From positions 128,001 to 192,000 of IMG/VR virus record IMGVR_UViG_3300025707_000003: DNA of 64,000 bases; one strand, 5' to 3'. Position 1 is the first letter of the stretch, and every line of letters begins with the position of its first letter. The notes under the pieces are model-generated. The model searched no databases. It was given only the letters and a program-made list of their open reading frames with translations, and was not told where the DNA came from. Below, one piece after another: positions 6,563-62,730 of this stretch. The stretch comes from a virus. Lineage: Duplodnaviria; Caudoviricetes. The position numbers were made by a program, and so were the translations under genes.

Positions 6563-6997
6563 TTAGTAGTTTTCTTGAGCCTCTTTACCCGCTTTGTACT
6601 CATAAAGCAGTTCACTTCGATCAGTCAAACCGACTTTCCATGTGTATTCTAAGTTATTTAAAGAAACACCATTCATGCCCATGTAGTAAACGATTTCTAT
6701 GATAGCTCCGTCCAAGTCTTTGATCATAGACTCTTGGTTGAGGTATCTTGAAAGTATCTCGATGTTAAGGATGAAATTTTCTTTATCTTCTTCCGAACCC
6801 TTTACCATTCTTTCCTTAGCAAAGTTTAAAAGTTGTTTGGTGTATGTATTGCGATGGTCAAGACCCAAGAAATAATCCTCGTGCTTACTCTCCATCATCT
6901 CTAAGAAATGTTTAGGGGTGAGTCTTGCAGACTGACGCTCTAAACGAGCAATCCTCATCTCAAGGTTTCTTATTATTTCTGAAGCTGATCTTTTCAT
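6563..6997 (-). CDS. leader-family protein (MKRSASEIIRNLEMRIARLERQSA) with unknown cargo
   Basis: True start is probably the ATG at 6997 (GGGGA RBS), not 7060. Leader matches the family consensus. Confidence 0.75.
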   Translation of the reverse strand: MKRSASEIIRNLEMRIARLERQSARLTPKHFLEMMESKHEDYFLGLDHRNTYTKQLLNFAKERMVKGSEEDKENFILNIEILSRYLNQESMIKDLDGAIIEIVYYMGMNGVSLNNLEYTWKVGLTDRSELLYEYKAGKEAQENY

Positions 6998-7025
6998 AAG
7001 AGTTTCCCCACTTTGTTTAATGTAA

Positions 7026-7056
7026 CACTTATTGACTATCATAAATAAACTACAAA
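7026..7056. repeat. 31-bp direct repeat, copy 1 (copy 2 at 7568..7598)
   Basis: CACTTATTGACTATCATAAATAAACTACAAA is identical upstream of two tandem leader genes. Confidence 0.9.
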
Positions 7057-7098
7057 TCAAATGGGGGGTGCATTTGATGATTGGTGGAAGTCTTAAGA

Positions 7099-7533
7099 CT
7101 ATTCGTTGCTTCTAATTCTTTTAAAGAAGTTAGGGTTCTTCATAATCAAGCTGGCGATCCCTGCTGACTCAATCTCAATTTGATAAGCCACGAGACCAGT
7201 ATCTCGTAAACTTCCACTCTCAACCTCGTAGTCAATGCGACAGTTGAATACAAAATAATCACCTCCACCCATCCAAGACAAATCAAAATCACCAGGCACT
7301 TTTCCTTTAGCTATAATCTGATCCATCATCTTATCTTTGCAGTAAGAGAAAATGGCTTGTAGATCATTTACACCCTTAACAGACTTTTTGAAGTCATCCT
7401 TCTCCATATCATGCTCTACAGATACAACACGAGCATTAAAGGATGAATCATTATCCCAACCTGCCGATTTGTTTTCAAGACGAGCAATACGACCCTCAAG
7501 GTTTCTAATCACTTCACTAGCTGATCTTCTCAT
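7099..7533 (-). CDS. leader-family protein (MRRSASEVIRNLEGRIARLENKSA) with unknown cargo
   Basis: Conserved leader, GGAGA RBS and upstream 13-mer motif. Confidence 0.8.
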   Translation of the reverse strand: MRRSASEVIRNLEGRIARLENKSAGWDNDSSFNARVVSVEHDMEKDDFKKSVKGVNDLQAIFSYCKDKMMDQIIAKGKVPGDFDLSWMGGGDYFVFNCRIDYEVESGSLRDTGLVAYQIEIESAGIASLIMKNPNFFKRIRSNE

Positions 7534-7580
7534 ATCATTTCTCCATTTGGTTTAGGGTTAAAGAGATCACTTATTGACTA

Positions 7581-7628
7581 TCATAAATAAACTACAAACT
7601 TTAGGGTTTGTGATGCAGATCTTCTCAT
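7581..7628 (-). pseudogene. truncated leader relic MRRSASQTLKFVVYL*
   Basis: ATGAGAAGATCTGCATCA with GGAGA RBS and the upstream motif intact. The frame runs into the next cassette's upstream motif and stops after 15 codons. Confidence 0.7.
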
Positions 7629-7645
7629 AATGGTTCTCCATTTGT

Positions 7646-7719
7646 TTAAGAATAAAGAGATCTCCTATGGATAACCTATAAATAAACTATCAATAGTTCT
7701 GGTTCTCCCAAGTCGCTGT
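7646..7719. repeat. 74-bp perfect direct repeat, copy 1 (copy 2 at 8825..8898)
   Basis: Identical 74 bp containing the last 10 codons (including the stop) of the 8869..10245 gene plus the 13-mer motif. Confidence 0.92.
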
Positions 7720-7786
7720 CTTGTATCGCAACCCCCCTAAAAACACAATCAATTCTAGATTCGGGAAAAAGTAGGAGGGGGGGGTA

Positions 7787-8806
7787 TTAACCTTGTGGTC
7801 TCCAAGACCTTATCTGTTGGTTTAACTTTGTTATTAGATCTTTGAAAACGCTTATACTTCTTTCTTTTTTACGCTGATGTATAGGGTCTGATGGTTGTCT
7901 CCTCTCTAACTCTTCGATCTCCTCATTTACTTTACGCTTAACATTTTTTAGACCCTCTGGAGATGTTTCTATTGGGTGTTCAAATGAACCATAACAAGAA
8001 ATTGTTTCCCTCCACCCATGTTGTATTCTATAACCATGCTTAAATAACTTACCATCTCTTCTTTTGGCATAAACTCCCCAACACATAGGGCAAGTACCTT
8101 TATTTTGTTCCTCTAAAGTCTGTTCGGGTTCGGTTTGCGGAGCGAGTCTTAAAAAGTCTTTTGCGTCTTCAACTGCACCCTCTTTGACTGCAAACTTTGT
8201 AATCTTAGTTAGATCAAAGTTCTCTAAATCTAGTTTGTAAGGTGAAATTTTTATCGCCACCTTTTTACCGTTTTTAGAAGTGGTTACTTTTTTGATACCA
8301 ACAAAAGCGTCCTCTAAATAAAACTTCCACCATTCTTTTCTTTTCTCATAAAACATACTGGTCAAAATAATCGAGATACGACCAAAAGTAGGTTTACTTG
8401 GTTTTCTATCTACAAAGTCTACATAGGGGATTGCTTTTTTAATCCTTTCAATCTCTTCTTCGTACTTTTGAAATGCCTCTTCAAATGTAGGGTATTCATC
8501 TACCGATACTAGTATAAAATAAATGCTTTGACCTAGCTTCTCAAAATCCTCAAAGGCAGTCTTGTGTTTGAGATTATCATTTGCATCCTGTGCCTCTTTC
8601 ATTTCAAAGTTAAAGCCTAAAGCTTCAAGCACCTCTTGTAAGATGTTAAAATTACCTTTTTTCGGCATTGGGGTTCTTCTTGAGTGGTTAGCCAAAGCTA
8701 ACATCATACTTTTAGCTTCATTGCTCAATGAAGATGTAGCTTGTTTTTCAAGACGGGCAACTCTCATCTCAAGCTCTCTGATGACTTCACTTGCTGTTCT
8801 TCTCAT
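7787..8806 (-). CDS. leader-family protein (MRRTASEVIRELEMRVARLEKQA) with C-terminal Zn-ribbon-like cargo
   Basis: Conserved leader; CPMCWG...KHGY...CYGS motif. Confidence 0.75.
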   Translation of the reverse strand: MRRTASEVIRELEMRVARLEKQATSSLSNEAKSMMLALANHSRRTPMPKKGNFNILQEVLEALGFNFEMKEAQDANDNLKHKTAFEDFEKLGQSIYFILVSVDEYPTFEEAFQKYEEEIERIKKAIPYVDFVDRKPSKPTFGRISIILTSMFYEKRKEWWKFYLEDAFVGIKKVTTSKNGKKVAIKISPYKLDLENFDLTKITKFAVKEGAVEDAKDFLRLAPQTEPEQTLEEQNKGTCPMCWGVYAKRRDGKLFKHGYRIQHGWRETISCYGSFEHPIETSPEGLKNVKRKVNEEIEELERRQPSDPIHQRKKERSISVFKDLITKLNQQIRSWRPQG

Positions 8807-8824
8807 AGGTCATTCTCCTGTGGG

Positions 8825-8898
8825 TTAAGAATAAAGAGATCTCCTATGGATAACCTATAAATAAACTATCAATAGTTCTGGTTCTCCCAAGTCGCTGT
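8825..8898. repeat. 74-bp direct repeat, copy 2
   Basis: Identical to 7646..7719. Confidence 0.92.
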
Positions 8899-10245
8899 AC
8901 GACCACGCTTCTCCAACGCATCAGATACCGTAGCCTTATCAGAGTCCATAGGGTAAGCACTGTCGGGTGTAACAGGATAAACAGCATCTGCTCTAGCTGT
9001 GTAGGTATCTCTCTGTGGCCAGTAACCATAACGAGTCTCAGGCCATGACACAGGAACTCCCTCAATAGGGAATCTATATCGTATGTCACCACTATCCAAA
9101 TACGCTATGTTGAAATGCTGTTGAAGAACATTACCTCTGTTCGATGGCATATTAACAGCACCACATGAATACCGTTCATTATTAGGTTTAACTATAAAGT
9201 CTTTCTGACTCACAATAGGACTAGGGCCGATCCACACCTCGTAGGAATGTTCCTTACGCCTACCACGATCTTCTTGACTAATCCTACGCTCACTGTCATT
9301 AGGGCCGACTATGATGTCATAAGGTCCATCATAACCTCCCTTAATACCTGTGCCGAAACAAATCGTACAAAGACTGTCTGGTTGCTTCGCATATTTAAGG
9401 GTCTCTTTATTGAAGGAGGTACAATAACAAGGTATCCCTGCTATCCTACGAGTAAATAACTTAACCCGTTCCCCCCCTTGTTCAAGTATCCAGTTATTAC
9501 GCCTTATCCCTTCTCTCCACATATAATCTACACGCTCAAGCTCTCTATCTGAGAAGGGCTTGCAATGCTCTAAAGGGGTTTCATGTAATACGCTTGTTTT
9601 TGGGTCTTCTGCTACTGTCGCTATACGATAGAAATCACGCTTATCTGTACCAAGTCTTAAGCGACTCTCTGGGTCATAAGCAATATAACTTATAGTGACC
9701 ACCGTATTGTCATCTATCGAAGGAGGTAAGCTATCTTCGGTTAAAGTGATGGCATCGGGTTTGGGTCTACCTGTAAAGAATAAAGTAACCTCACCAAACT
9801 CACCAAGCACTCTCGATGTGGGTACGATAACACCGTTAATCATTACCACAACATCTCTTGGTGAATCAGCAGGGTCATTGATGCTATTTTGTCTCGCTAT
9901 CGGGTACTCCACTTGAAACCGATAAGGATCTTCACCTTGATCCCCTTTAGAAATCCACTTGTCTGCTGGGATGACTTCATCATTAACTGCCCATGTGTCT
10001 ATTCGATCTCTGTATATTGTTCCACCGATAGGTGTGATGTTCACCCTACGATAAGGGCCACGATCAGAGTTGCCCGATCTGTATATGTTCACACCACGAA
10101 CAATCCAACCCTCATTTCCATGTAGGATTGATGGGTTATCCCAATGGACATCTATCTCACCCTTAGCGAAAGGGGAGACAGCACTCGTATTTCTTGGTGG
10201 TACAGGCCAAGGACTTCTACTGTCGTACCAACCATGTTGTGCCAT
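8869..10245 (-). CDS. putative virion structural protein (neck/head-completion-like, N-terminal beta-sandwich)
   Basis: FN3-like N-terminus (VHWDNP...GVNIYRS). The C-terminal GERVKLFTRR..PCYC...CTICFGTGIKGGY pattern is recalled from large-phage neck proteins and not verified. Confidence 0.45.
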   Translation of the reverse strand: MAQHGWYDSRSPWPVPPRNTSAVSPFAKGEIDVHWDNPSILHGNEGWIVRGVNIYRSGNSDRGPYRRVNITPIGGTIYRDRIDTWAVNDEVIPADKWISKGDQGEDPYRFQVEYPIARQNSINDPADSPRDVVVMINGVIVPTSRVLGEFGEVTLFFTGRPKPDAITLTEDSLPPSIDDNTVVTISYIAYDPESRLRLGTDKRDFYRIATVAEDPKTSVLHETPLEHCKPFSDRELERVDYMWREGIRRNNWILEQGGERVKLFTRRIAGIPCYCTSFNKETLKYAKQPDSLCTICFGTGIKGGYDGPYDIIVGPNDSERRISQEDRGRRKEHSYEVWIGPSPIVSQKDFIVKPNNERYSCGAVNMPSNRGNVLQQHFNIAYLDSGDIRYRFPIEGVPVSWPETRYGYWPQRDTYTARADAVYPVTPDSAYPMDSDKATVSDALEKRGRTATWENQNY

Positions 10246-10315
10246 AATAATCTCCCATGTAAGCGATATTTACTTATAGGGAGATTATAAATGACTTATT
10301 ATTCTCTCACTTCAA

Positions 10316-10834: not shown

Positions 10835-10843
10835 CGTAAAACC

Positions 10844-11686
10844 CTAGAACAGATTCTTAAAGAACTCTGAAATGAAAGAAATGAATGCGTCATACTTGGG
10901 CATATGGTAAGGAAGTCCGATCAGAGATCTTGCAACAGGTCTTGTAGATAGTTGAAAAATAATATGAAGCCAGAACAAACACGCTATAAACCCAGCCCTC
11001 CAAAAGACATAGAGAACCCAGTCTTTCAAGACTCTATCTCTTGCTCTTTTCTTAATGTATTTAGGCCCACCTAGTCTTTTTACTTTCTCAGATCCTAGAG
11101 GAGGCTGTAGCGATTCAATGGTTTCACCAACCGCATATATTTCTTGTGGTTCTTTCACCCCTTTAAATTTATACATACCTACACAAGCAAATCGGGTGCT
11201 TTTTGGTGTGTGCATATTCGTTCTGTTTCGAGTGGCTAACATTGCCTCCTTTGTGAGGAGAACTTGACCTTTTTGACAAAGAGACATTGTTCTAGCGGCA
11301 ATGTTTTTTGAGAGTCCTTCAAGTTCGACTCTCTTAGCTCCAGCTCCAACATAGACATCATCTTGTTCTACTTCAATGATTTTACCCCAGTGTATACCGA
11401 TACGAGTATTGATCTTTATTTTTGGTGGGATTGTTTTTTGATAAGCGAGAGCAAAGTTAACTGCATCTACAGGTCGGTCAAAAGACAATAGAAAACCATC
11501 AGAACGATCTATCTCTCTGCCTTCATGCCGATAAACAAGATTTCTAGCCATACGATCATGGATTTGAAACCACTGAGCCGCCACCTTAGCTCCCACCCTT
11601 TGAACGAAAGCAGTAGACCCTATCAAATCTAAGAGAACGATAGCTAAGTATCGTTCTTTCATAGTAATATCATGATCAAAGGGCAT
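10844..11686 (-). CDS. class III nucleotidyl (adenylate/guanylate-type) cyclase with C-terminal TM segment
   Basis: AIVLLDLIGST (metal Asp1), DRSDGF (Asp2), RIGIHWG, KNIAAR (catalytic Asn/Arg) and GQVLLT. Confidence 0.85.
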   Translation of the reverse strand: MPFDHDITMKERYLAIVLLDLIGSTAFVQRVGAKVAAQWFQIHDRMARNLVYRHEGREIDRSDGFLLSFDRPVDAVNFALAYQKTIPPKIKINTRIGIHWGKIIEVEQDDVYVGAGAKRVELEGLSKNIAARTMSLCQKGQVLLTKEAMLATRNRTNMHTPKSTRFACVGMYKFKGVKEPQEIYAVGETIESLQPPLGSEKVKRLGGPKYIKKRARDRVLKDWVLYVFWRAGFIACLFWLHIIFQLSTRPVARSLIGLPYHMPKYDAFISFISEFFKNLF

Positions 11687-11690
11687 GGGT

Positions 11691-11897: not shown

Positions 11898-11899
11898 AA

Positions 11900-12220: not shown

Positions 12221-12222
12221 AA

Positions 12223-12573: not shown

Positions 12574-12666
12574 ATATAAAATAAATTATAAATAGACTAT
12601 AAATGAGGAGATCATCATATAAGGGATTAAGTCGTCCTACTAACCTCATTCTTAAGGAGTGCGTTT

Positions 12667-13893: not shown

Positions 13894-13895
13894 CC

Positions 13896-14783
13896 TTAAC
13901 CGTTCGCTTCGAGTACAGTTAAAAGTCCAGAAGTAGTTTTGACTTTATTGATCTTCATTAGGTATTTCACCTCTAGTACTAAAATTACAGCGAAAACGGA
14001 TGAAATCCCTACTGAAGCGATAAGTTTAACTAAAGCTCCATTGGCAGGGGGAGGTAGGATTAGCTCTAAGATAATCTCGATACCTTCTCCTGGCAACATA
14101 GCCACTAAGTTGCTAAATGAAATTGTACCTAAAAGCCCTGCTACGACAGCTTTAAAATCAAAGTCTGCAAACCAATCCCAGATTTGGAAAAAGAGATAAA
14201 TCTTGATGGGTGCAGAAAGAGCTTTAAGGGTTCTTGAAGTTCCAAGAACACCATCAAGGAACTCACCTAGTTTGGTTGTACCTTGTTCTATTTTTGCTAG
14301 TGCAGACTTTACAGAGTCTGGAACATAACTCTTATACTTGTTTATTAAATCTTCCCATCGGTTCTGTTCTTCTAACACCTCTCCAAGAAGACGAAGCAAA
14401 GGTAGCTCTTTTAATATCTTTGTGGATAAACTACTGAGCTTTTTCTTACCCTCTTCAAGAAGGTCACCTAGCTTTTTGTCGATTTGTTTAATCATGGAAA
14501 ACACATTTGTGGCTGTGACCCCTAACATAGATTTAAACTTTTGCCATGCTTGAGGTGCTTTCTTAAACAAAGTAATCAGTTTCTTCACCTTCTTCACTAT
14601 CTTCATAAATGCTTTTCTTTGAGTGAAGTCTTGGCGACTGTTCGCAGTTAAGTGTTTAGCAATAACTTGTATTGCTTCAATGGAAAGATCCGAAGAGGTT
14701 GCCCTCTTCAAGTTCGGACTTTGATCGTAGGCGACTTGACAAGCAATTCTAACCATATGTTGTTGTACTATTCTATCTAACAT
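13896..14783 (-). CDS. amphipathic/membrane protein with weak leader-like N-terminus
   Basis: MLDRIVQQHMVRIACQVA...KRATS start, hydrophobic C-terminal third, 13-mer motif at 14824. Antisense insertion in the recombination cluster. Confidence 0.6.
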   Translation of the reverse strand: MLDRIVQQHMVRIACQVAYDQSPNLKRATSSDLSIEAIQVIAKHLTANSRQDFTQRKAFMKIVKKVKKLITLFKKAPQAWQKFKSMLGVTATNVFSMIKQIDKKLGDLLEEGKKKLSSLSTKILKELPLLRLLGEVLEEQNRWEDLINKYKSYVPDSVKSALAKIEQGTTKLGEFLDGVLGTSRTLKALSAPIKIYLFFQIWDWFADFDFKAVVAGLLGTISFSNLVAMLPGEGIEIILELILPPPANGALVKLIASVGISSVFAVILVLEVKYLMKINKVKTTSGLLTVLEANG

Positions 14784-15861: not shown

Positions 15862-15909
15862 ATCATATAAAAGAGGTATCACAAACACACCACTCAAAGG
15901 AGAGTTCAA

Positions 15910-18848: not shown

Positions 18849-19448
18849 TCACCCTCGGAACCTTTTGAACTCTTTAAGGAGTTTATTGAGTTTTCGAGTG
18901 AGTAAGTCAACATCTTCAGAAACACTCCCTGTAGATTTGACTTCAAACCCAACGCTCTTGGCAAAGTCCCAGAAACTATCAGGGATCTCACCACTGTCAC
19001 CTTCGTCCTCAATACTAAGAGTCCATTTACCCGCATAAAAAGATAGGGTGATAAAAATAAATTTAGCGACCTCGTTGTCTACAAGAATCATTGCATAAGA
19101 ATCGAAAGATTCGATAACATCTACAGTGTTCTCACCAAATACATCTTGAAGTTTTAGGAGGATGGACTCTGCTGAGAAAGGGGTTGGGATCATTTCAGCG
19201 GGTATGATGCCACTGATCTGTCCCTTAAACTCAACTTCATCCGAGTCTGCATTCGCTTCGGTTATGTTCCAGCTCACATTTTGAAAAAGCTCTCCAAGTT
19301 CATTTTGAAGTTTAATAGCTATTTCTCTAGGTGAGTCACTCTCATCAAACGAAAAGTTATCCATCAGATCGGTTATACTCGCTGACTTCTCAAGTCGTGC
19401 GATACGACTCTCAAGGTCATTAATAATTTCACTAGCTGATCTTCTCAT
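18849..19448 (-). CDS. leader-family protein (MRRSASEIINDLESRIARLEKSA) with acidic cargo
   Basis: Conserved leader, GGAGA RBS, 13-mer motif at 19498. Confidence 0.8.
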   Translation of the reverse strand: MRRSASEIINDLESRIARLEKSASITDLMDNFSFDESDSPREIAIKLQNELGELFQNVSWNITEANADSDEVEFKGQISGIIPAEMIPTPFSAESILLKLQDVFGENTVDVIESFDSYAMILVDNEVAKFIFITLSFYAGKWTLSIEDEGDSGEIPDSFWDFAKSVGFEVKSTGSVSEDVDLLTRKLNKLLKEFKRFRG

Positions 19449-19509
19449 AAGGGTTCTCCATTTTGTTTAAGGTTAAAGAGATCACTTATGAGAAGATATA
19501 AAAGAACTA

Positions 19510-20427
19510 TTAAAAGTCGTAAGCTCTACGACCTCTAAAAGCATTTTCGTCTTCAAGAGATTCCTCAATTTCACCATAGTTCTCTTCATACCAATCAAGG
19601 TGTCCAGGTTCATCTACTTTAGACTTCTTGAAGTACGCAAGAACGATAGGCATAATGATCTCTAGGAGAGGTATAGAAGCAAGACCCCACCATGCAGGGT
19701 TCCCAGTTATGCTTACCATTGTTGCAGGAAGAACATAATGTTCGAGTGTTTCTACAATAGCCATTGCGATTGCTAGTAGGACAACCTTAAAGAAACGCTT
19801 AGACCATTTTTTATACCAAATCTCATCTGCGTGTGGATCCCAACCCTTTGACTTGACGATATGGTAAGCGTGTTTGATGATCTCAATAGGGTTGATGACA
19901 TTAAGAGCTTTCTTTAATGCTCTCTCAACAACCTTTTTGTCATGCTCTTGTGCCGCTTCTTGAATGATACGCTTTTTTACTTCGTTAGGTATTGGGCCAT
20001 CATTGGTGTCACCCCAAGTATAACCCTCGTAAAACTCTGGTGACTTGCCTCTCGGAGAGAACCAAGATTGACCATGTTCTCTCTCGCTTTGCCTAAGTTT
20101 AGCACCTGTTTCAAATTCCTCAAAGTCAGCGTCTACTTCAGATTCCATCAGAGCTTCTGCATATTCTGGAGCGATTGCTTCGATAACATCATCCATGAGA
20201 TCATCAACAGGCATAGAGAAAAGGTTAAGATGCCTACGATACTTATCAAGTGGTTCTGCGACATACTTGAGGAAAAGACCTTTTAATGAGTCTGTCATTC
20301 CTGCTTGATATTCCATAGCCGCAACTTTAAGCTCAAGTCCTGCGATACGCTCCATTGTAGCTTGACGATTCATTGATGCTTGCCGATAAGAGCGTCTTGC
20401 TCTACGATAACTGTTATCATGTCTCAT
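19510..20427 (-). CDS. membrane protein with diverged leader (RQATMERIAGLELKVAAMEYQA)
   Basis: Leader-like heptad segment and two C-terminal hydrophobic helices; 13-mer motif at 20480. Confidence 0.65.
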   Translation of the reverse strand: MRHDNSYRRARRSYRQASMNRQATMERIAGLELKVAAMEYQAGMTDSLKGLFLKYVAEPLDKYRRHLNLFSMPVDDLMDDVIEAIAPEYAEALMESEVDADFEEFETGAKLRQSEREHGQSWFSPRGKSPEFYEGYTWGDTNDGPIPNEVKKRIIQEAAQEHDKKVVERALKKALNVINPIEIIKHAYHIVKSKGWDPHADEIWYKKWSKRFFKVVLLAIAMAIVETLEHYVLPATMVSITGNPAWWGLASIPLLEIIMPIVLAYFKKSKVDEPGHLDWYEENYGEIEESLEDENAFRGRRAYDF

Positions 20428-48900: not shown

Positions 48901-51900
48901 ACCCACAGTATTGGTTGGTCCAGAGCAGATTAACGCAGGGCTTTATAGTATTGGTCAAAACACAATACGATTTTCTTTTGAGGTGTCGAGTACGACATCG
49001 GTCAAAGTGTCTTATACGACCTTAACCTCTAACGGTGGAGATGGAACAGTTCGGACATCTAGTGGTATGGTGATCCCTAAATATAAGATTGATAAGGGAG
49101 CGACCTCTTTATCTGTTCAAAGAGACTTTACGAGTGTCTTAGGTGTTGGAGATTTGATTTATGTAGGCACACAGATCTTCAATGTTGGGTCAGTGAGTGC
49201 GAGTAGCATTACAGTGAGTCCACCTGCGAGGGTAAATATAGAGTCCGAGATGATTGCATATCTCAATGTGCCTTCATTCACATATGGAGCAACAACTAGC
49301 TCGTATGCCTTTAGAACGGTGAATAATGCGAACATCACGGCAAAGCCGAAGAGTCCAGACATTTTGATACAGGGAGATTACAGGGACTTTATTAAGGCTC
49401 AATCCATTGTGGTTCTTCAAGGAACTCCGTACCGAGTCAAGGTGGTAGGTCTTGATGACGCAACAGGTATGACCAAAGTTACTATAGAAGGGTTCACTTC
49501 TGGTCATGACTTTACATCTAACAACGACTTCCACATTTCTTTTAGACCTGTTCTTCTTGAGGGTGCTACGAGTCTTACTTTAAATACTGGTATTGTAGAC
49601 ACTGAGAGTTTTCAACTCATCAAGTACAGCCACACAGAGGGTAGGGGTCGCCTCCTAACTCCTAATGAGGACTACAAGTTCAACTCAGAAGCAGGGTTAA
49701 TCAACCTCACTAATGGACATGATGTTAGACCTCAAGTCAGTTATTACTTGCTCCACACAGCTTTGAGTGGTGTCAAGCCTTTTACTCTTTTAGGTGGTCG
49801 GGTAAGTAAGCCCACATACAAAGCGATTTTCAATCAATCAACAACGCCTAAATCTTATGATGGTTTGGGGTTGAATGTCCGTTGTGTTGTTTCCTCACCA
49901 GATACATTCCAAATTCGCATAGCAGACGATGATACTTACTCATCAGAAATCGCCAATGAGCTTCAACAGAGTCTTAATCAAGGTACAGGTTCTGGAGGTA
50001 AGTTGGTCATTTCTTCCCCTACCTCACAGGGTAAGGCGATAGGGATATATGACTTACTAGCGAATGATGTTGTGGCTCGATCAAGGATCAATCTTTACAA
50101 TGGTTATGTTCAACCTGTGGATGACATCATCTCTACTACAACGGGTAAAGTGGTGGGCGATGCAGATGGATCATTTAAGTTTAACTTATTGAGTTCGGGT
50201 GATTGGATCGCACCAGGTATGGAGGATCACATCACAAGAGAGATTTACCCTCGTTATGTGAGCATGGAGTATCTGACTCCTCTTAATCCATTAAACCCTT
50301 TTCCAACACCTGAAGATACTATCTTGATTGGAGGAGTACCTCCAGAGTCGGATCGGTTATCTTTGTTGTTATTACAGCAGAGGGATTTGATCGAGAATGA
50401 GATGGATGACTATGTTCTCATAGGTCAAAGGGAGAAGACATCATTCGACTTTGGTGCAGGCATTTTAAACTTATATTTGAGATATGATTATATACCTGTC
50501 TATCGAGCCATGTGGAAAAGACATAGGTTCAGTCGGTTATTCCCAACAAGTACGAGAATGTACTCATATCGCTCACCTGGGACACTTAACACCTCAACCA
50601 ATGGTAATACCATAGCCAATGTTCAAAACAACGCTCTAGGGCAAATAGAGAACATCACTTCGCTTCCTATGATTAAGCGTAGGTCAGCTAGGTTTAGGGT
50701 CTATGACTTCTCTCTTACAGGATTCCCTAGCATAGATGCAGGATCAAGTGGGAAGCCGACATTTATCCTTTCGGCTTTACCTTTAGATGAGTTCCCTATT
50801 AATAGTGCGACTGGTATTGTAGACACCGCACAGTTCATGTCTGAGGGAGGAGATCTCGCTGATGTTGTTGTGGGTAATGTTGACAGGACATTTAACGGTC
50901 TTAATCCTTTATCTAAAATTAAATTAAGTCGTAATGGTGGGGATTTCTATCCAATCCTAAACACAGCCCGAACAGCAACTCTTGTGGACTTAGGTTTATT
51001 CCCACCTTTAGAGCAAGAAGCACCTCGTAATGCAACGGTTTCTAGTGTGTTGAAAGGTTGTTTAGTTGTTCTCAATGGGAACGCATTTACATTAAAGATT
51101 AATGGTGAGTCTTTGACTAAAAACCCACCTAAGCGTGGAGATACTATTATTGAATCTTTCGCTCGTGATCTTGATGATGAAAGTTCACCGAACACTACAT
51201 TTAGAGTTGGTTCTGATATAGGTCTTAAGAGTAGCACAGGAGAACTGGTAGATATAAGCCTCCCAAGTTTTAATGACCCCGATTGGCCTATTAAAGAGAT
51301 AGTCGGTCAGACAGTGCCTAGTGGTAGATTAGCCTTAGAAGGGGTTGTTGATTTCACATATACTGAAACCACACCGTTCAGATACCCTGCTTTAGACGGA
51401 GACTCTTTAGATGACACAGGGGATGAGTCTATACCGTATATGAGCAGATTTAATGAGAGGGACTTATTACCTCAAATACCTCCTGCTTTGAATGGACTTC
51501 AAGTACAGACCACCAATGCCATATCGGGTGTTGATGAGTATGCTTATCCAGATGAAGCTAGAGGTACAGCTAGTATCTCGAATGGGATCATCACAACAAG
51601 CGAAGATTTCTCTGCTTTGAATGGGATCTGTGAGCAAGCACCAAGACAGGGTGATCTGCTTATATTGAAGCCCGATTCAAGCGATGCTTCTACAGGTGTC
51701 CTTGAGATCGCAACTATTAATGGGTCTGAGATCTTGCCCCCAACATACACTACACCTGGTGCTGTGTCATGTAGGATACCAAACTTGATGGCAGACTTTA
51801 GAGAGTTCTCTAATGGTGTTTTCATCGAGGAAGATTGGCCTTTCAACGCAGTAACTGGTCTCCATGATAGATCCGAGTTGAAGATGTACTTTTTTCAACA

Positions 51901-54900
51901 CTCGATACAAGAACTCTTTGACAACCCACAAGCTGATTTAGAGATCACAGTTCACATTCATAACTTTGATGACAATGTGACAAACCCAAACATAAACGCT
52001 CACTCATTTCGTTTTAGATATGACGGAGCTAACTGGGAAGTTGCTTTAATAAATGAGCTTACCCCCTCAGAAACTATCGTACCTAATCTCTCAGTTTCAG
52101 CTACAGCCCCTAGTGAGCTAACAATCGTTCAAGATCCCGTACCTAACCCATTCGATCCCTCTACAGAAACTTGGGCAGACTCTGCGGATATGGGATCTTG
52201 GCTTTTTGAAGATTATTGGGACGGTGTAAATCACTTCTATAATCCAATACCCCCTATTGGTGGGTCTACTGGATATATATTCACACAACGACAAGGGGGG
52301 TCAATGACTCCCTCAAATTATCGCATTTCTGTTAAGAGTAATGCTACGGTCTTAGATAATCGTGTGGATGTCGTGTTCCCTATGAGCCTCATTCCTCATG
52401 CGTTCATACAAGATCCTATTTATGCAGGTGGTTCTAATACAGATCAAAAACTAATCATTGATGGAACAACGCTAGGGGTTAAAGAGGAAGGCGGAGTTGG
52501 AACAGATACAATCACCTCCGATGTGAATGATGGGGATTTTTATTTCTCGTCTGTTAACGACACAACATTAAGACCACTATCTCTTGACGGTATCACACGG
52601 TCAGATGATCCAATGTCAATCTTCATTGGGTCAGAGGTAGATGAGACAGATACGATTTTACAAGGCACAGCTCGATCTGGACTTGTCAACTCAGCGGGTA
52701 ATGAAGATAAAGGTAAAGGCATACTTCGTAATGTGTCCCCTACACAGGGTACAACGGCTCAAGTCCACACAGGTGATCTGCTGTATATTGAGAGTGGTCA
52801 CAATGCGGGTACACATCGGGTCTTAGATGTCATAGAGACTGATATAAGCTCAGAGATCACAGAAACTTTGGGGTCAAGCCAAGTCCTACCCGTAGTGTTC
52901 CCTAAAGTTGTAAGCCTAGACACAGGCACAAAAGTTTTAACTACAGATGTAGCTGATCTCACGCAATACTTTAGCGACCTCAATGCTGGCTCTATCTACA
53001 TCATATTAAATGATAACTACACTAACACCCCCACTCCAACATTAGACTCTACTCCAGCTCTCGTTAAAGACCCAGTATTTGGTGTCTCTATTATTAAGGT
53101 CGATTACACTAACATCGCAGGGTCAGAGATCACTTTGGATTTCCCATGTGAATATGCAGATGGAACAGGTATCGCAAACGCTACTGGTTTGAATACGATC
53201 TTAGGGAGTTATAACCAAGTCATTGGCGGGGTGAATAAGATACCTTTCAACTTAGAGGCAACAGGTTTAGCAAGTAATGGTTTATCTGCCTCCTTTGGGG
53301 TAGACCTAACCTTACAGATGATCGTAGGTGGTGGTATCGCAGGTTCAGCAAGTGCTTCAAATACGCCAGCTAATCCATTCTTAGAGACTCAAGTAGTTAG
53401 AACCGATAAAGGTTTAGTCTCACACATAACACTAGATGTCAGCGATGCTAATCTCTATCCAGTCATTACAGATACAGGGAGTCAAACCTACGGTAAGTCT
53501 TTCTTATCTCCTAATGACACCATCACCTTAACTGTTAAGTTGGACGCAGGTCTTTACCTTGATACAACATTCCCTCTACTCCTTAGAGAAGACTATAATG
53601 GCACTGCACCCGTTGAGTTTGGTGATGGCACAAGCCAAGTCAGATCCCCTATACAATCTACCCTAACAAATCTACCCGCATGGGATTGGTATGAGGAAGT
53701 CACATTCACTGTTCGCAGACTCAGACGCTTCACAGATGTGTTCTCGAAGCTCATCTATGCGTTCGAGGGGTTTCGATACCTTTATGAGCAACGAGTTGGT
53801 CGAGTAGATAGTGTGGCTTACGCAAATGGTGTGATTACCCTTACACCACTCAAGGTTGATGGTGAGGGTGTTGCTGATGTTAATGGTACAGATACACAGG
53901 TAGGGGACTTTGCAAATGTTGTGTCTGTAGGAGATCAAGTACAGTGCGTTAATGCGTCTAACCTTGAGACTCTTTATTTGAGAATCCTTGAAGTTGGTTC
54001 TACGCTCAAATGTTCCGCAATCAGAGGTTCAGTCTCCGTTGTTTCCAACGGTGATGTTTTTAAGATCATCACTCGTGTTCCTCTTATCCCCGAACTACAA
54101 GCGTTCGATCAGTTTATTGAACATGGCTTCACAGAGGTTCATTCTACAACGCCACAGGCTGGTATCTCTGTCGGGTTTGAGAATATACTTACAGACACTA
54201 ACGCTGACTTCATCTCACTTGGTGTAGCAACAGGTGATTTCTTAGTTATCGACCCTCAAGGAGAGTTGGCAGGTTCTAACCCGACCGAATATGGATCACC
54301 ACCTAAAGGAGATAATGGAGATGGTACTGTAGGGTCATCTCATGTTCTTGATGACAATAGGGGAGCTTACAAGGTGGTATCTGTAGATGATGCTAACACA
54401 CTTGCTGTTGAGTTTTATGCAGGGGATAGTGGAACTGCTAGAACAACTTATAAACTCTTGCCCTCTGTTAATGGGGATGACGCTCAACCATTGCGTGAGA
54501 CTTCTAGTATAGTCGGTAGCTCCTATGCGACAACCAATCACTCGATCCATCCATTCTCTTATCGTATCCTTAGACGGAAGACCACTCTTGGGGAGTCGCT
54601 TGCAGGTTCGTTCTTGTTCTTTAGGGAGAGGACGCTTTCATGGGTAGAGGTTATTCGTTCTTTCAACGCACTCCCTACTCAGCCATACACATGGTCGCAA
54701 TATGAAACCGAGAACTTGATTGATAGCGTAGGTGTTGCAGACCTCAGTCACCCATCTAATGATCTCTTATTACAAAACATCTTAGGTAATGAAGTTCCCA
54801 ATCCTTTTGAGAACAATGAAACTTGTTTATCTGTATATGATAGGCGAATGTTGATTGAAGACCCGAAGATGGCAGAAGAGGGGTATGGGACACCCGAAGA

Positions 54901-55066
54901 GGGCATCCCAACGGTGCTTGAAAATGATATATCTTCTATGAACGCTAGAGATAATAGGTACGCATGGATTTCTGTTCGTACCGATCAAGTAAACGGCACT
55001 CTCTCTAAACTTAGTAGGGTGAATCTTAACAACCCCGATGACACAGCATTGGAGGACATCAAATGA
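45947..55066 (+). CDS. very large (3039 aa) beta-rich virion protein, probably baseplate/tail-associated
   Basis: Uninterrupted 9.1-kb ORF, rich in Gly/Ser/Thr/Val/Asp; LTEGVDY and LTPNEDY motifs of a kind common in tail/baseplate proteins. Confidence 0.6.
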   Translation: MSKIILDVRSGERNDSTTGLCLRVVDASVVEVDGRWERVGRDLYEIGSSCGAVESYALISSGDGEIGSESVGVSFEKLFEDAIDGVYYYLTNSRVWLSSVRDENGAVLDHFFGGTVVHSVRSDLDTDNLEGTGVCGGLFWWSRNDVSRTRFSYENRGWSLLRGGAGSIVGEVGSEDDIIAGLEGELRIGGGNVAEVSVTVYEIGTEGVFPVVSEGSEEDAFNGGVEGVVLNPSGKVLFKEGSDHVGKEILYISGTLGDFESNVVGEQDYLSPKPRLNERPLLRVAGYGYSDVEFVATEAQLVDAEYGKVKVALDSGRILSSGQPVIYDGLVLCDAPIGVGAGVDGLTPVEKMDIPDGSGLEPSGVASSFDPTGVGLKWDYRYERMYVRLVEAGRTLPVELVERLPKRLSVHRGYLVQGTTSVVLSRAWSNQTKKIFGGHVALNRGGLKHMSILRLTGTGSFKVDGAVVSFTGENVVGSGVSVVDGYLVVDSGSIVDHPSTTEEFESLRSIGLVPSSSLETGLEFVLTRSSVKGYYSFDEEKVADISGSTAFQFLQFEPRVDFSGYESGKFFKIGDKVLGDTDIEPAFGGNPNGFHWIVGRTVSSKVNQETSRLALGAGLRVGTTSITITQEQMNGSISTQPLTEGVDYDLPSDGLEGQARLISRLGSEVLSGQKVGSLVGVDLDLSVGVDATQVRQGDFFYDGLNYFKIVAITGTVITLSSALGIQLGRWKIYRGYREGLEETETPDPTKVVGEILDDLPVLDRKAVEIYKVYGTLAFDKVLPSSTLFIRKGDDSYPLTVLRDDVLLSPYELSGDHYTSGSYRIKVGEIEYEAGVGHTKEGEVVEKGFTVTDNRVVFESPMGVANSSWVDGEVIFVRKPRSGLVDTAEMDLSLTLTTPFDPDPFDDFLELLANPRFEATSGAISFEDPLEVGVGVEVSYTPTDDPDGVRIIEAMGFVVIQEEATRVNGFEFTYNPTGKEVELLASPTVLVGPEQINAGLYSIGQNTIRFSFEVSSTTSVKVSYTTLTSNGGDGTVRTSSGMVIPKYKIDKGATSLSVQRDFTSVLGVGDLIYVGTQIFNVGSVSASSITVSPPARVNIESEMIAYLNVPSFTYGATTSSYAFRTVNNANITAKPKSPDILIQGDYRDFIKAQSIVVLQGTPYRVKVVGLDDATGMTKVTIEGFTSGHDFTSNNDFHISFRPVLLEGATSLTLNTGIVDTESFQLIKYSHTEGRGRLLTPNEDYKFNSEAGLINLTNGHDVRPQVSYYLLHTALSGVKPFTLLGGRVSKPTYKAIFNQSTTPKSYDGLGLNVRCVVSSPDTFQIRIADDDTYSSEIANELQQSLNQGTGSGGKLVISSPTSQGKAIGIYDLLANDVVARSRINLYNGYVQPVDDIISTTTGKVVGDADGSFKFNLLSSGDWIAPGMEDHITREIYPRYVSMEYLTPLNPLNPFPTPEDTILIGGVPPESDRLSLLLLQQRDLIENEMDDYVLIGQREKTSFDFGAGILNLYLRYDYIPVYRAMWKRHRFSRLFPTSTRMYSYRSPGTLNTSTNGNTIANVQNNALGQIENITSLPMIKRRSARFRVYDFSLTGFPSIDAGSSGKPTFILSALPLDEFPINSATGIVDTAQFMSEGGDLADVVVGNVDRTFNGLNPLSKIKLSRNGGDFYPILNTARTATLVDLGLFPPLEQEAPRNATVSSVLKGCLVVLNGNAFTLKINGESLTKNPPKRGDTIIESFARDLDDESSPNTTFRVGSDIGLKSSTGELVDISLPSFNDPDWPIKEIVGQTVPSGRLALEGVVDFTYTETTPFRYPALDGDSLDDTGDESIPYMSRFNERDLLPQIPPALNGLQVQTTNAISGVDEYAYPDEARGTASISNGIITTSEDFSALNGICEQAPRQGDLLILKPDSSDASTGVLEIATINGSEILPPTYTTPGAVSCRIPNLMADFREFSNGVFIEEDWPFNAVTGLHDRSELKMYFFQHSIQELFDNPQADLEITVHIHNFDDNVTNPNINAHSFRFRYDGANWEVALINELTPSETIVPNLSVSATAPSELTIVQDPVPNPFDPSTETWADSADMGSWLFEDYWDGVNHFYNPIPPIGGSTGYIFTQRQGGSMTPSNYRISVKSNATVLDNRVDVVFPMSLIPHAFIQDPIYAGGSNTDQKLIIDGTTLGVKEEGGVGTDTITSDVNDGDFYFSSVNDTTLRPLSLDGITRSDDPMSIFIGSEVDETDTILQGTARSGLVNSAGNEDKGKGILRNVSPTQGTTAQVHTGDLLYIESGHNAGTHRVLDVIETDISSEITETLGSSQVLPVVFPKVVSLDTGTKVLTTDVADLTQYFSDLNAGSIYIILNDNYTNTPTPTLDSTPALVKDPVFGVSIIKVDYTNIAGSEITLDFPCEYADGTGIANATGLNTILGSYNQVIGGVNKIPFNLEATGLASNGLSASFGVDLTLQMIVGGGIAGSASASNTPANPFLETQVVRTDKGLVSHITLDVSDANLYPVITDTGSQTYGKSFLSPNDTITLTVKLDAGLYLDTTFPLLLREDYNGTAPVEFGDGTSQVRSPIQSTLTNLPAWDWYEEVTFTVRRLRRFTDVFSKLIYAFEGFRYLYEQRVGRVDSVAYANGVITLTPLKVDGEGVADVNGTDTQVGDFANVVSVGDQVQCVNASNLETLYLRILEVGSTLKCSAIRGSVSVVSNGDVFKIITRVPLIPELQAFDQFIEHGFTEVHSTTPQAGISVGFENILTDTNADFISLGVATGDFLVIDPQGELAGSNPTEYGSPPKGDNGDGTVGSSHVLDDNRGAYKVVSVDDANTLAVEFYAGDSGTARTTYKLLPSVNGDDAQPLRETSSIVGSSYATTNHSIHPFSYRILRRKTTLGESLAGSFLFFRERTLSWVEVIRSFNALPTQPYTWSQYETENLIDSVGVADLSHPSNDLLLQNILGNEVPNPFENNETCLSVYDRRMLIEDPKMAEEGYGTPEEGIPTVLENDISSMNARDNRYAWISVRTDQVNGTLSKLSRVNLNNPDDTALEDIK

Positions 55067-59304: not shown

Positions 59305-59602
59305 GCCTAAAAGTCGGAGACAAGATATAAGAGAGTTCTTAGTGATACACTTTAAAAGTGAATCACAACCACAGACTGTGGAGAACTGTCTGAACGCTTA
59401 TATCATACAGAGAGATTTGGGTGGAGACTATAAACTCAAAACCAACGAGGTTAAAACATCAAAACCCACTAGCAAAAAGTCTCGTGTTCGACTCAGAGAT
59501 CAGATCGCCCAAGAGCTAGGTGTGGTGAAGCAAATGGGTTTGATATGCCGTCTAAGATATGGTGTCTATGTTAAGAAGTACCCACCTAGCAGATCACCTT
59601 AA
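59291..59602 (+). CDS. winged-helix-like DNA-binding protein
   Basis: RDQIAQELGVVKQMGLICRLRYGVY resembles the wHTH recognition helix and wing. Confidence 0.45.
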   Translation: MNIAMPKSRRQDIREFLVIHFKSESQPQTVENCLNAYIIQRDLGGDYKLKTNEVKTSKPTSKKSRVRLRDQIAQELGVVKQMGLICRLRYGVYVKKYPPSRSP

Positions 59603-60145
59603 ACGCTTATTGATCTCCCTAACTAATGCAGAAGCGTCATCCTCTGGTTTAAAGTTCGTGTCTAACTCAAAGTTAAACTTCCTGTCTCTGGAACTCACAA
59701 CCCAATTACCTTTAAAATCATCATACTCGATTTCGATCATTTCCGTTAGACTCAAACCCTTGCTCGGATAGATTTCGCCACGACCAATGTTTGAGTGTCC
59801 AAAAGTATAGTTTTGGAAATGGCAGTCTGTAAAAGGTTGTTTCTCTTCTAGGAGAGAAACTACTTTTTTGCCATCGTAATGAACCATCACATAGTCCTTA
59901 GTCTTAAAACGACCAGTGATTTCTACCTCCCCACTATTCCCGTCTTGCTTCTTGAACTCAACACTAGAGACATCCCAATCAACACCTGGGTTGTTCTCTT
60001 TGAGGTAACCAATCACATTTTCTTCTATTTCAGAAGCTGTCTCAAAGTACATCTCACTAGAGATAGGTAGCAACTGAGCTGACTTTTCAAGTCTGGCGAC
60101 TCTTGATTCAAGGTCATTAATGATTTCTGAAGCTGATCTTCTCAT
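59594..60145 (-). CDS. leader-family protein (MRRSASEIINDLESRVARLEKSA)
   Basis: Conserved leader with unrelated acidic cargo. Confidence 0.8.
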   Translation of the reverse strand: MRRSASEIINDLESRVARLEKSAQLLPISSEMYFETASEIEENVIGYLKENNPGVDWDVSSVEFKKQDGNSGEVEITGRFKTKDYVMVHYDGKKVVSLLEEKQPFTDCHFQNYTFGHSNIGRGEIYPSKGLSLTEMIEIEYDDFKGNWVVSSRDRKFNFELDTNFKPEDDASALVREINKRLR

Positions 60146-60154
60146 GGGTCATTC

Positions 60155-60718
60155 TCAATTCTTTCTATACTCAGCTATAGCAGGTGTAAAATACTCCGAT
60201 AAAATAACCTCTGAGACTAACCCCTTGCGTGTACTCTTGACTCGACCCAAAGTGTCTCGTAATTGTCTAATTTTTGATTCCATACAAAGACATATATTAG
60301 ACCCTTTACCAAAATCTTCAGCGTCTAGCTCTAACCAGAAATCAATCTCGTATTTTATTCCCTTTATCATGAAAGAAACATCACCCCCCCCAAGTATGCT
60401 TTGAGAAATTTTCTCGTTATACATAGTCCCAATATTCATATCACTGCTGTTCATATGGAAGTTGTGTACTTTAATGTTTGTCGCACCTTTAGATTTAAGT
60501 GCTTTCATCATTTGTTTAGGGAAAGTCTTTTGTATTTCAATGTCCACACCCCTCGCATACGATAAAAGATATTTTCTCTGTTCATTTAAGTCGCCATAGT
60601 CATAAGGATAGCCATCGTCTTCTGGATTGCCCTCCTCGTCTTCTGGATAGGATCGTTTTTCAAGTCTAGCGACTCTAGTTTCAAGATTACGGATTATTTC
60701 TGATGCTGATCTTCTCAT
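60155..60718 (-). CDS. leader-family protein (MRRSASEIIRNLETRVARLEKRS)
   Basis: Start at 60718; 13-mer motif at 60753. Confidence 0.8.
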   Translation of the reverse strand: MRRSASEIIRNLETRVARLEKRSYPEDEEGNPEDDGYPYDYGDLNEQRKYLLSYARGVDIEIQKTFPKQMMKALKSKGATNIKVHNFHMNSSDMNIGTMYNEKISQSILGGGDVSFMIKGIKYEIDFWLELDAEDFGKGSNICLCMESKIRQLRDTLGRVKSTRKGLVSEVILSEYFTPAIAEYRKN

Positions 60719-60764
60719 AATGGACACACCTTTCATCTAAAAGATGACGACAATAAATAAACTA

Positions 60765-61625
60765 CTAATCATTGGTTTCACACAAGCCCCACCTAAAACA
60801 ACCGATTTCATCTCTTCCTAGTTGTTCATCTGTGAAAAGTTCTTGTAATCCGTCTTGTTTCCCTTTAGCCCAAGATACCGCTTGCCTTATGTTTCCTTTC
60901 TTGAAGAAAGTGGCTTGACTCCCTCGCTCCTCAGATACTCTCTTCTCTAAGTTCTCTAAGTAGTCTATACGATCTGGATCTATTCTAGCCATATTACGAA
61001 TGTCTGCTTTATTGGAGTATATACAAGGCCAACATCCAACTCTACTAGAACCCTTTAGATATAGAGGGTTTGGAGAAACACCGTTTTTCTGATGAATGTA
61101 AATCACATCTTCTTCTGACCATTCTAAAATAGGTCTGATTTGTGTCGCTTCGTCTTGCTCCTCTACATATCCAAAAGTAGATCTTCTGATCGACTCCCCT
61201 CTTCTAATACCTGTGATGTTAATGGGGAACTTTCGGTTCTTTAAGAAAACCTCCACTGCGTAAGTTCGATAACTTACAAGTTTAAGCTCATTAGTACACC
61301 ATTTTAAGCGTCCATTCGGGAACATTTTTTTCTGTAATACAGCACTCTCCATACCATAAGCATGATCTTGGTAGTTGAGTTTTTCATTTTGAAGTTTGAC
61401 TACTTCAACCCCCAAAATATCACTAAGGGTATCTACATACTTATATGTCAAAGGGTGTTCCCACCCAGTGTCGCAAAACACTGGAGTGAAAGGTATGTTA
61501 TGTGTTTTTAACAACAACCCGACTGCTGTAGAGTCTTTTCCCCCACTACAACTTAAGATTAGAGGTCGATCTGTTTCTTTTAAGAATGCTATCGTTTCTT
61601 TTTCAGTGTTTAGTTCTAATGTCAT
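60765..61625 (-). CDS. PAPS reductase-family (PP-loop) protein
   Basis: SCSGGKDS, DTGWEHP, GIRRGESIRR, RPILEWS and SRVGCWPC. Confidence 0.85.
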   Translation of the reverse strand: MTLELNTEKETIAFLKETDRPLILSCSGGKDSTAVGLLLKTHNIPFTPVFCDTGWEHPLTYKYVDTLSDILGVEVVKLQNEKLNYQDHAYGMESAVLQKKMFPNGRLKWCTNELKLVSYRTYAVEVFLKNRKFPINITGIRRGESIRRSTFGYVEEQDEATQIRPILEWSEEDVIYIHQKNGVSPNPLYLKGSSRVGCWPCIYSNKADIRNMARIDPDRIDYLENLEKRVSEERGSQATFFKKGNIRQAVSWAKGKQDGLQELFTDEQLGRDEIGCFRWGLCETND

Positions 61626-61645
61626 TGTTCTACCTTTTTAAGAAG

Positions 61646-61706
61646 AGGTTTAATGACATTATACTATTTAAGGTTTAATGACATTATTATACTATTTAAG
61701 GTTTAA
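61646..61706. repeat. imperfect tandem repeat (25/28-bp units) upstream of the PAPS reductase-like gene
   Basis: AGGTTTAATGACATT(ATT)ATACTATTTA x2, then AGGTTTAA. Confidence 0.75.
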
Positions 61707-61815
61707 AATAATCGAATAACCTTTTCCAATCAAGAGGGTGTTTTAATCTGCCGAACTAGTTGTAAGCGATCTTTTGGATCATCTGGTAGGAGATGTGACA
61801 TCCAACTTGGTGGAT

Positions 61816-62730
61816 TTAATAATACAGTCTTCTCATAGGTCTAGTGATTGGGCTTGGTCTTCTAACAAAACCATCGTCAAGTCTAGCAAATCTTTTCTTT
61901 TCAACAGGGTACTTTTTAACTTTAGCTCTGTACTTTGTACCTAACTTGCCCTCTACTTTACCTAGAACTTCACCTCTAGCGATTTCTACAGCCTTAACAC
62001 CTGCTGGGTTCGCCAACTTACCATAAGCACTTGCACCCACAAAAAGACCTGTATCTTGATCTTCCCAAAGAACAAAGAAATGGAACTGACCTGCTCTTGA
62101 ACCTACTCCCTCTAAATACATTGTACCAATCTCATTATAGTTAGATACACCTGTTTTACTTTCAAGTGCTTGGTAAGCCGATCTGGATAACGCTTCTGTT
62201 TTTGATAAATTATCAGAAGAAATCTCGTTATCAAGTTCCTTTTGTTTCTTATAGTTCTCTCTTCTTCTTGCCTTATCTTCACCCATAGCTTTAGGTTTCG
62301 ATCTTGGTTCTCTCAAAAACCACCCTTGATCTTCGGCGTGTTCAGCTTCGCCCACATAACCAGGTTTACCAGACTTTCCCCAACACTCTTTGTGGAAAAC
62401 TGAAAAAGGAGCATTTTTCGCACTGCCGAGAGGTAGTCGTTTACCATTCATATTATAGTATCCGTCATAAGCCTCATCAATCTCAACTTTGCCGTTTGGG
62501 TGGACAACGACCAACTCACTCATCCATTTAGACTTATCAGACCATGCTTTAGGTTGTTTTGGAGTACGAACACCTGGGATAACAGGTAGGGGTGTTGTGT
62601 CCCATTTAAAGTGGGAAATGATAGACTTGCCACAAGCCATACATTTCCAAGAACTGAACCCTGCTGTTTTTTCAAGACGAGCGACCCTTGTTTCAAGATT
62701 ATGGATAATTTCTGATGCTGATCTTCTCAT
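61816..62730 (-). CDS. leader-family protein (MRRSASEIIHNLETRVARLEKTA) with Zn-binding and WGR-like cargo
   Basis: CMAC...FHKEC; C-terminal YLEG...QFHFFVL...AYGKL...K..K..KKY. Confidence 0.7.
   Translation of the reverse strand: MRRSASEIIHNLETRVARLEKTAGFSSWKCMACGKSIISHFKWDTTPLPVIPGVRTPKQPKAWSDKSKWMSELVVVHPNGKVEIDEAYDGYYNMNGKRLPLGSAKNAPFSVFHKECWGKSGKPGYVGEAEHAEDQGWFLREPRSKPKAMGEDKARRRENYKKQKELDNEISSDNLSKTEALSRSAYQALESKTGVSNYNEIGTMYLEGVGSRAGQFHFFVLWEDQDTGLFVGASAYGKLANPAGVKAVEIARGEVLGKVEGKLGTKYRAKVKKYPVEKKRFARLDDGFVRRPSPITRPMRRLYY

Follow-up and report, generated by a model that had tools for sequence, protein, structure and literature searches.

A portable N-terminal tag on swappable proteins of marine huge phages: a likely but unproven address label for the virus head

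Why should proteins that have nothing else in common begin with the same two dozen residues? The question is raised by a stretch of 64,000 nucleotides (nt) of viral DNA (positions 128,001 to 192,000 of IMG/VR record IMGVR_UViG_3300025707_000003), hereafter called the window. It derives from the genome of an uncultured huge phage of marine origin, with a head module resembling that of phage G. Seven of its open reading frames (ORFs), genes A to G (Table 1), start with a shared leader, the tag, and continue into proteins of diverse sequence, the cargos. An original prediction, made from the letters of the window, read the leader as a targeting signal by which interchangeable effectors are loaded into the phage head for injection. 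Below we describe the tag as a portable protein module in the form of a 24-residue N-terminal helix, which most likely, though this is not proven, serves as an address by which exchangeable cargos are brought into the phage head.

A portable N-terminal helix on unrelated proteins

The expression [RK][ST]ASE[IVL][IVL]..LE.R[IVL]A.LE was searched in the ORF listing and in a six-frame scan, and matched the window exactly seven times, each time right after an ATG. The matches are the seven minus-strand ORFs that had been predicted, all of which carry the motif M-[RK]-R-[ST]-A-S-E-[IV]-I-x-x-L-E-x-R-[IV]-A-R-L-E without mismatch, a motif found in no other frame of the window. A profile of 64 leaders, compared with the 955 six-frame ORFs, recovered the same genes with E-values of 2e-17 to 1e-15 and gave 0.3 for the next ORF. 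Nothing is shared behind the leader, as had been claimed: in an all-against-all BLASTP comparison of the proteins without their first 25 residues the best E-value was 0.32. Three further ORFs had been put forward as diverged or possibly diverged carriers; these are conserved core genes, in contrast to the seven tagged genes. Two of them are not supported, as the ORF at 19510-20427 (E-value 25) is not statistically leader-like and the one at 13896-14783 gave no profile match. The third, at 37014-37751, scores poorly in the window, but its ortholog in a 375-kb relative (73% identical) has an exact RIARLE core. The restriction to the minus strand is correct for the seven window genes but does not extend to the system as a whole, as the tagged genes of relatives lie on both strands.

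The 375-kb relative, G001, is a contig of 375,691 bp (rated 100% complete; 45% guanine plus cytosine, GC) that is syntenic with 79% of the window at ~70-85% identity and encodes ~30 tagged proteins among 456 called ORFs. A second one, G006, is a complete genome of 312 kb with direct terminal repeats (38% GC) and has ~26, and four partial relatives have 9-15 each. Tagged genes make up ~7% of the genes per genome. A degenerate DNA pattern of the tag was found at at least 67 IMG/VR loci, and the stretch 59594-62730 is present in marine and seawater metagenomes of at least 13 studies. The profile search for additional cargos that the original prediction had suggested was productive: among 1.84 billion representative proteins, 1079 clusters passed a threshold of E<=1e-3, and in nearly all of these the tag begins at residue 1. 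The tag was not detected in cultured phages at E<=10 (tblastn against 50,697 phage records, T-even phages included), which bears out its claimed independence from the T4 capsid targeting sequence (CTS), and the full tag is absent from the genomes of 185,579 cellular species. Matches of a core-only pattern in cellular genomes were rejected as unrelated coiled coils or wrong-frame matches.

The consensus of the tag reads M-R-R-[ST]-A-S-E-[IV]-I-[RN]-[ND]-L-E-x-R-[IV]-A-R-L-E-[RK]-Q-[AS]-[SAG], with L-E-x-R-[IV]-A-R-L-E-[KR] as its core. Within a set of 69 leaders, residues 1-24 are conserved, after which the conservation collapses sharply, at residue 25, where a linker dominated by S, N, P, G and K sets in. 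The coiled-coil spacing that had been noted holds on this larger set (hydrophobic I9, L12, I16, L19 and A23 in 3-4-3-4 order, together with i/i+5 Arg-Glu pairs), and so does the ending, [RK]-Q-[AS]-[SAG]. Given that the Arg and Glu positions and this non-helical end are conserved as well, all faces of the helix matter.

Selection acts on the peptide, as had been concluded from the leaders of genes D and E, which indeed differ by nine synonymous codons and one non-synonymous codon and include two AGT/TCA serine switches. The codon diversity of the invariant residues points in the same direction: R15 and R18 are each encoded by six codons and S6 by both serine codon families. Synonymous and non-synonymous differences stand at 12583:8192 in codons 2-20 versus 566:11595 in codons 25-30. 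The near-fixed codons are ATG AGA AGA at the start and CTT at L12 and L19.

The tag is not confined to the N-terminus. Of the 150 best representatives, 14 contain a second, internal copy that almost always covers profile positions 14-27. It lies where two domains seem to meet, follows the first copy in tandem or, in one case, sits at the very C-terminus; one protein of 433 amino acids (aa) consists of three tagged units in a chain. Considering that the internal copies cover the core half, this half must be a functional unit of its own, and the copies fit a processing or docking unit. The G006 lineage has an N-terminal half that is different or shorter, with V-S-A-Q-Q at the place of A-S-E, and retains the core as L-E-x-R-[IV]-A-[RQK]-L-E-K.

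What follows the tag is extremely diverse. On basis of BLAST, 71 tagged proteins were divided over 55 cargo clusters and 146 representatives over 117, which bears out the view that the tag is a module and not the conserved end of full-length homologs. The possibility that we are dealing with an ordinary paralog family that diverged past recognition behind the N-terminus can practically be discounted. Some local paralog groups do exist, like a tandem family in G006, but the 55 to 117 unrelated clusters differ in length and predicted content, and paralog decay would not produce a drop exactly at residue 25. Moreover, gene C has three tagged orthologs with a closely similar tag, whereas their cargos have 43-60% identity over query residues 26-339.

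The cargos, for the most part orphans, have a median length of ~110-150 residues behind the tag. Segments resembling transmembrane helices occur in 2 of 146 cargos versus 50 of 426 background proteins; the depletion indicates that the cargos are soluble. Pfam recognised only WGR, KOW and OB-fold domains in 219 tagged proteins (69 + 150), and neither MuF nor another known N-terminal trafficking domain among these; toxin/immunity pairs were not recognised either. The cargos of the window had no informative PHROG or Pfam match, and searches of cargos and neighbouring genes with Pfam, PHROG and NCBIfam gave almost nothing. A WGR domain considered at the end of cargo G was dropped (hhalign probability 0.1). 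An AlphaFold2 (AF2) model of gene C had a mean predicted local distance difference test (pLDDT) score of 58 and one confident central domain, for which no fold match was found in the PDB. Atlas searches with the cargos of genes C and G and with a neighbouring 458-aa protein returned orphan viral clusters only.

Cargos are also rapidly replaced. None of the seven window cargos is conserved in G001 (a homolog of gene A, for instance, was not found there), versus 68 of the 76 other window genes (p 1.5e-6). Similarly, a G006 homolog exists for none of the 30 cargos of G001, versus 193 of its 426 other proteins (p 6e-8).

The promoter-tag cassette and cargo exchange

Upstream of the tag, the conservation continues at the DNA level. 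A box with the sequence TAGT-N3-TTTAT, denoted class I, is positioned 28-64 nt 5' of the ATG in six of the seven tagged genes (~61 nt in four), and several tagged genes also have the untranslated region (UTR) in common. The usual cassette is self-contained and consists of a class I promoter box, a short UTR, the tag and the cargo. Gene E, which starts 9 nt past the stop of gene F, has no box of its own. Of the 28 G001 genes that are tagged by regular expression, 22 have a class I box in front, versus 52 of 428 others (p 4e-14); it is also found ahead of the first gene of the head operon and of a lysozyme/baseplate-hub-like gene. A second and very conserved box, GTAACCCCTTAT[CT]TATA, lies ahead of many small genes on both strands of the window (22.8-34.9 kb, 41.7-43.8 kb and 63.5 kb) and ahead of 52 genes in G001, almost to the exclusion of tag genes, and is probably the sign of another temporal class.

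The loci had been described as hypervariable, and the comparison with relatives and with seawater contigs confirms this. Genes B and C are missing in close relatives (in L016 and L066 gene A abuts the gene for the 458-aa protein), and G001 has no cassette whatever at the locus of genes A to C. In the window, gene C is bracketed by an 86-nt direct repeat that spans the last codons of the 458-aa gene as well as promoter box and UTR, and an empty cassette (repeat family D3) runs straight from MRRSAS into the next promoter box. The 458-aa gene encodes a conserved viral protein, and its 3' end is a recurrent insertion point of tag cassettes, in the window as well as in G006.

Contigs from four seawater runs contain joined forms of the region around genes E to G. 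At one joint (60689-62732, with 27 nt of variant tag in between) cargo F is placed behind the upstream region of gene G and 2.0 kb is gone; at the other (60150-62790) genes F and G and the gene between them have all been removed. The latter, intervening gene is untagged, encodes an SGGKDS (PP-loop-like) motif and disappears along with gene G from natural variants. In many further contigs the match is limited to the 5' half of the tag DNA and gives way to divergent sequence. Thus, both the joints and the divergence fall on the tag/promoter module, which identifies the shared module as the site of natural cargo loss and exchange.

These observations raise the possibility that conservation is mainly at the level of DNA or RNA, with promoter, UTR and start acting as a handle for expression or recombination and the peptide as a passenger. 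The conserved promoter and UTR, the near-fixed codons at the start, L12 and L19 and the deletion joints inside the module are what such a handle would lead one to expect. Nevertheless, we consider it very improbable: invariant residues use up to six codons and the synonymous excess is confined to the tag, gene E has a tag but neither promoter nor UTR, the internal copies lie far from any start, and the diverged lineage retains the core of the peptide with a different N-terminal half. Whatever the function of the tag, the promoter-tag cassettes form a clear example of how accessory genes are organized and exchanged in huge phages.

Proposed head loading and other possible functions of the tag

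The head operon of G001 encodes a possible portal of 1171 aa, a head maturation protease, an acidic EF-hand scaffold and a major capsid protein (MCP) of the HK97 type. For the protease, phrog_18299 is matched at 5e-14, and homologs in Tunturiibacter and Gordonia phages carry the annotation head maturation protease; an AF2 model of the protease was unusable (mean pLDDT 34). The MCP matches gp27 of phage G (PDB 6WKK) at 3.6e-63. Within the scaffold (L071:10558-12096) the EF-hand (PF13202, E 1e-7) is flanked by two conserved helical repeats, each with ADNAVQVG at its end. The degree of conservation varies strongly among these proteins. The MCP (L071:8890-9765 in G001; L109 in G006) is 98.6% identical between G001 and G006 and 89% identical to that of phage record LR745208.1, where the protease keeps only 70% and 42% and the scaffold ~64% and lower; the shell protein is either unusually constrained or was recently exchanged.

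By analogy with T4, we propose that the tag is a label for head loading and that the cargos are packaged and delivered with the DNA, a proposal to which we give an even chance. Transcribed from class I promoters, the cargos would be produced alongside the head proteins. The tag would then dock them to an interior component of the prohead, most likely the scaffold core, and assembly of the shell would shut them in. Trimming by the head maturation protease would probably take place close to the [RK]-Q-[AS]/[SAG] boundary of the tag, or else at internal core copies, and the freed cargos would travel with the DNA to be present as ready-made, fast-evolving effectors when the next infection starts. 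Several properties fit such a scheme, namely a promoter box that head genes have as well, a head operon with protease and scaffold, and cargos that are small, soluble and rapidly exchanged. The end of the tag, which looks like a processing site, the internal core copies and the precedent of the T4 internal proteins fit as well, the last by analogy.

The internal proteins of T4 are diverse and defence-related and have only the CTS in common, which places them in the scaffolding core (PMC3012670). Like the CTS of IPI, IPII, IPIII and Alt, the tag is a short N-terminal peptide that forms the sole common part of diverse, rapidly varying proteins, and here too a prohead protease gene is present in the head module; the promoter box that cargo and head genes have in common may point to a shared timing. 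Unlike the CTS, the tag has an unrelated sequence of ~24 instead of ~10 residues, without an L/I-x-E site at its end. The scale is also different, as a genome carries ~30 tagged genes and the cargo clusters number more than 1000, versus a handful in T4, and the head is of the phage-G/HK97 type with a separate scaffold.

In the giant phages phiKZ, 201phi2-1 and SPN3US, N-terminal propeptides are cut by the prohead protease and have been proposed to target proteins to the prohead (PMC10052503). These phages are likewise large and have many head-internal proteins with N-terminal propeptides, but the propeptides do not share one common sequence. Their cleavage motif is A/S/G-x-E; the tag has A-S-E at residues 5-7, thus not at its end, and the G006 lineage lacks it. 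Short peptides that bring unrelated cargo to the interior of an HK97-like shell are also represented by the cargo-loading peptides of encapsulins, the C-terminal targeting tail of the HK97 protease and engineered P22 scaffold fusions. Such loading tags are usually C-terminal and have different motifs, whereas the present candidate is N-terminal or internal. Finally, MuF phage toxins have been proposed to travel in phage heads (PMC5576092). They resemble the tagged proteins, as do polymorphic toxins in general, in the combination of a conserved N-terminal module with highly variable C-terminal payloads that are exchanged by recombination, but the tag is a single helix and not a domain. The principle is known from T4, and the tag differs in being unrelated in sequence, longer, two-part and embedded in a promoter-tag cassette that is polymorphic in the ocean. 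We found no phage described in the literature with a comparable scale (~7% of the genes, more than 1000 clusters), and the multi-omics paper on phage G contains nothing on shared leaders.

A number of points weigh against head loading. The late (morphogenetic) character of class I promoters, because of which the cargos would be made together with the head proteins, is deduced solely from the genes downstream of the box. The cargos show no charge bias, unlike the basic internal proteins of T4, and known prohead-protease sites yielded no match to the tag that holds across lineages. The complex predicted for the tag (A3) and the G001 scaffold (A4) scored 0.00 with low pLDDT, which is evidence neither way. 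In G001 the expression R[ILVM][AV]RL[AE], which was chosen post hoc, occurs in tagged proteins, the scaffold and the C-terminus of the protease only; the motif is not kept in G006, and the idea of scaffold mimicry that this resemblance to the tag core suggests is no more than a weak lead. Furthermore, LR745208.1 (485 kb, 54% GC), with its MCP identity of 89%, has no tag by profile or pattern, which makes it impossible to place a binding site on the conserved shell. Another N-terminal motif that may be present in that phage does not recur in G001, G006 or the window.

Some of these points would equally suit a docking helix for another common late partner, such as the tail or baseplate, the exterior of the capsid or an intracellular hub built by the phage. 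The modularity, the late-type promoter and the conservation of all helix faces apply just as well to such a partner, the search for a head partner identified none, and a phage with a nearly identical MCP does without the tag. On the other hand, the WGR, KOW and OB-fold cargos suggest an action on nucleic acids inside the cell and not outside the virion, structural tail parts do not share the small size and high variability of the cargos, and a candidate hub gene was not found. Based on the above, we regard another partner as unlikely.

The sequence of the core has to be considered as well. Helices like LExRIARLExQA arise by convergence in unrelated cellular proteins and the core by itself is therefore a generic coiled-coil sequence, which is again unfavourable to a specific head address. 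It could imply that the tag is merely a short coiled coil that di- or trimerises the cargos, or mixes them, and has no role in targeting. The a/d heptad spacing with its i/i+5 Arg-Glu pairs, the similar helices in cellular coiled-coil proteins and the tolerance for internal and C-terminal copies are in agreement with this. Yet, two to three heptads make a weak zipper, and it offers no reason why one and the same zipper should be restricted to fast-evolving accessory genes with a late promoter (~7%), nor why all helix faces and the non-helical [RK]-Q-[AS]-[SAG] end are conserved. Oligomerisation as the only role thus seems quite improbable.

If head loading is correct, a single short profile suffices to catalogue what an entire clade of abundant, uncultured marine phages injects, and turns more than 1000 protein families, nearly all without a function so far, into candidates for anti-defence or host takeover. 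It would also mean that the internal-protein strategy of T4 arose independently, on a far larger scale, in phage-G-type heads, and it would provide an engineering handle to pack foreign proteins into large HK97-type capsids. A more far-reaching formulation, which we consider somewhat less likely than not, holds that the tag makes the complete set of capsid-loaded, injected proteins computationally readable. This set would consist of more than 1000 unrelated effector families in late-promoter cassettes that are swapped in an integron-like manner within the promoter-tag module but are addressed at the protein level, and the tag would represent a new, transferable packaging signal for heads of the HK97 type.

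Coordinates and neighbouring genes

Table 1. Tagged genes, cassette elements and other genes of the window
Feature	Position	Strand	Remarks
Tagged gene A, 144 aa	6563..6997	-	leader 6926-6997; profile E 2.4e-17; ATG inside slightly longer ORF
Tagged gene B, 144 aa	7099..7533	-	leader 7462-7533
Tagged gene C, 339 aa	7787..8806	-	leader 8735-8806; Cys-rich C-terminal part
Tagged gene D, 199 aa	18849..19448	-	leader 19377-19448
Tagged gene E, 183 aa	59594..60145	-	leader 60074-60145; without own promoter box
Tagged gene F, 187 aa	60155..60718	-	leader 60647-60718; ATG inside slightly longer ORF
Tagged gene G, 304 aa	61816..62730	-	leader 62659-62730
Core gene, 245 aa	37014..37751	-	N-terminus with core half of tag only; profile E 0.35
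Class I promoter box	7041..7052	-	TAGTTTATTTAT
Further exact class I boxes	7583-7594, 7678-7689, 8857-8868, 60753-60764
Class I boxes with 2 mismatches	19498-19509, 62776-62787
86-nt direct repeat	7634..7719; second copy 8813-8898		copies 95% identical; brackets gene C
Empty cassette remnant	7581..7628	-	promoter box, UTR, ATG AGA AGA TCT GCA TCA (MRRSAS)
Gene for 458-aa viral protein	8869-10245	-	3' end is cassette insertion point
Untagged gene between F and G	60765-61625	-	SGGKDS motif
Cyclase-like gene	10844-11686	-
Large terminase gene, 1041 aa	3428-6553	+
Large ORFs	45947-55066	+	3039 aa, then 816 aa and 322 aa

Apart from the cassettes, a few genes of the window deserve mention. The large ORFs (Table 1) are all conserved in G001; those of 816 and 322 aa are without family assignment, and the 3039-aa ORF itself was not scanned. 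The minus-strand block beside the tag cassettes includes a gene whose product has the catalytic domain of adenylate/guanylate cyclases (PF00211, E 1e-5) and is hydrophobic at its C-terminus. The large terminase appears to contain an intein-like insert, roughly at residues 100-545. Its nearest record is LR745208.1, to which it aligns in two pieces by tblastn (61% covered), and the middle part matches helicase-gene inserts of Bacillus, Listeria and Enterococcus phages.

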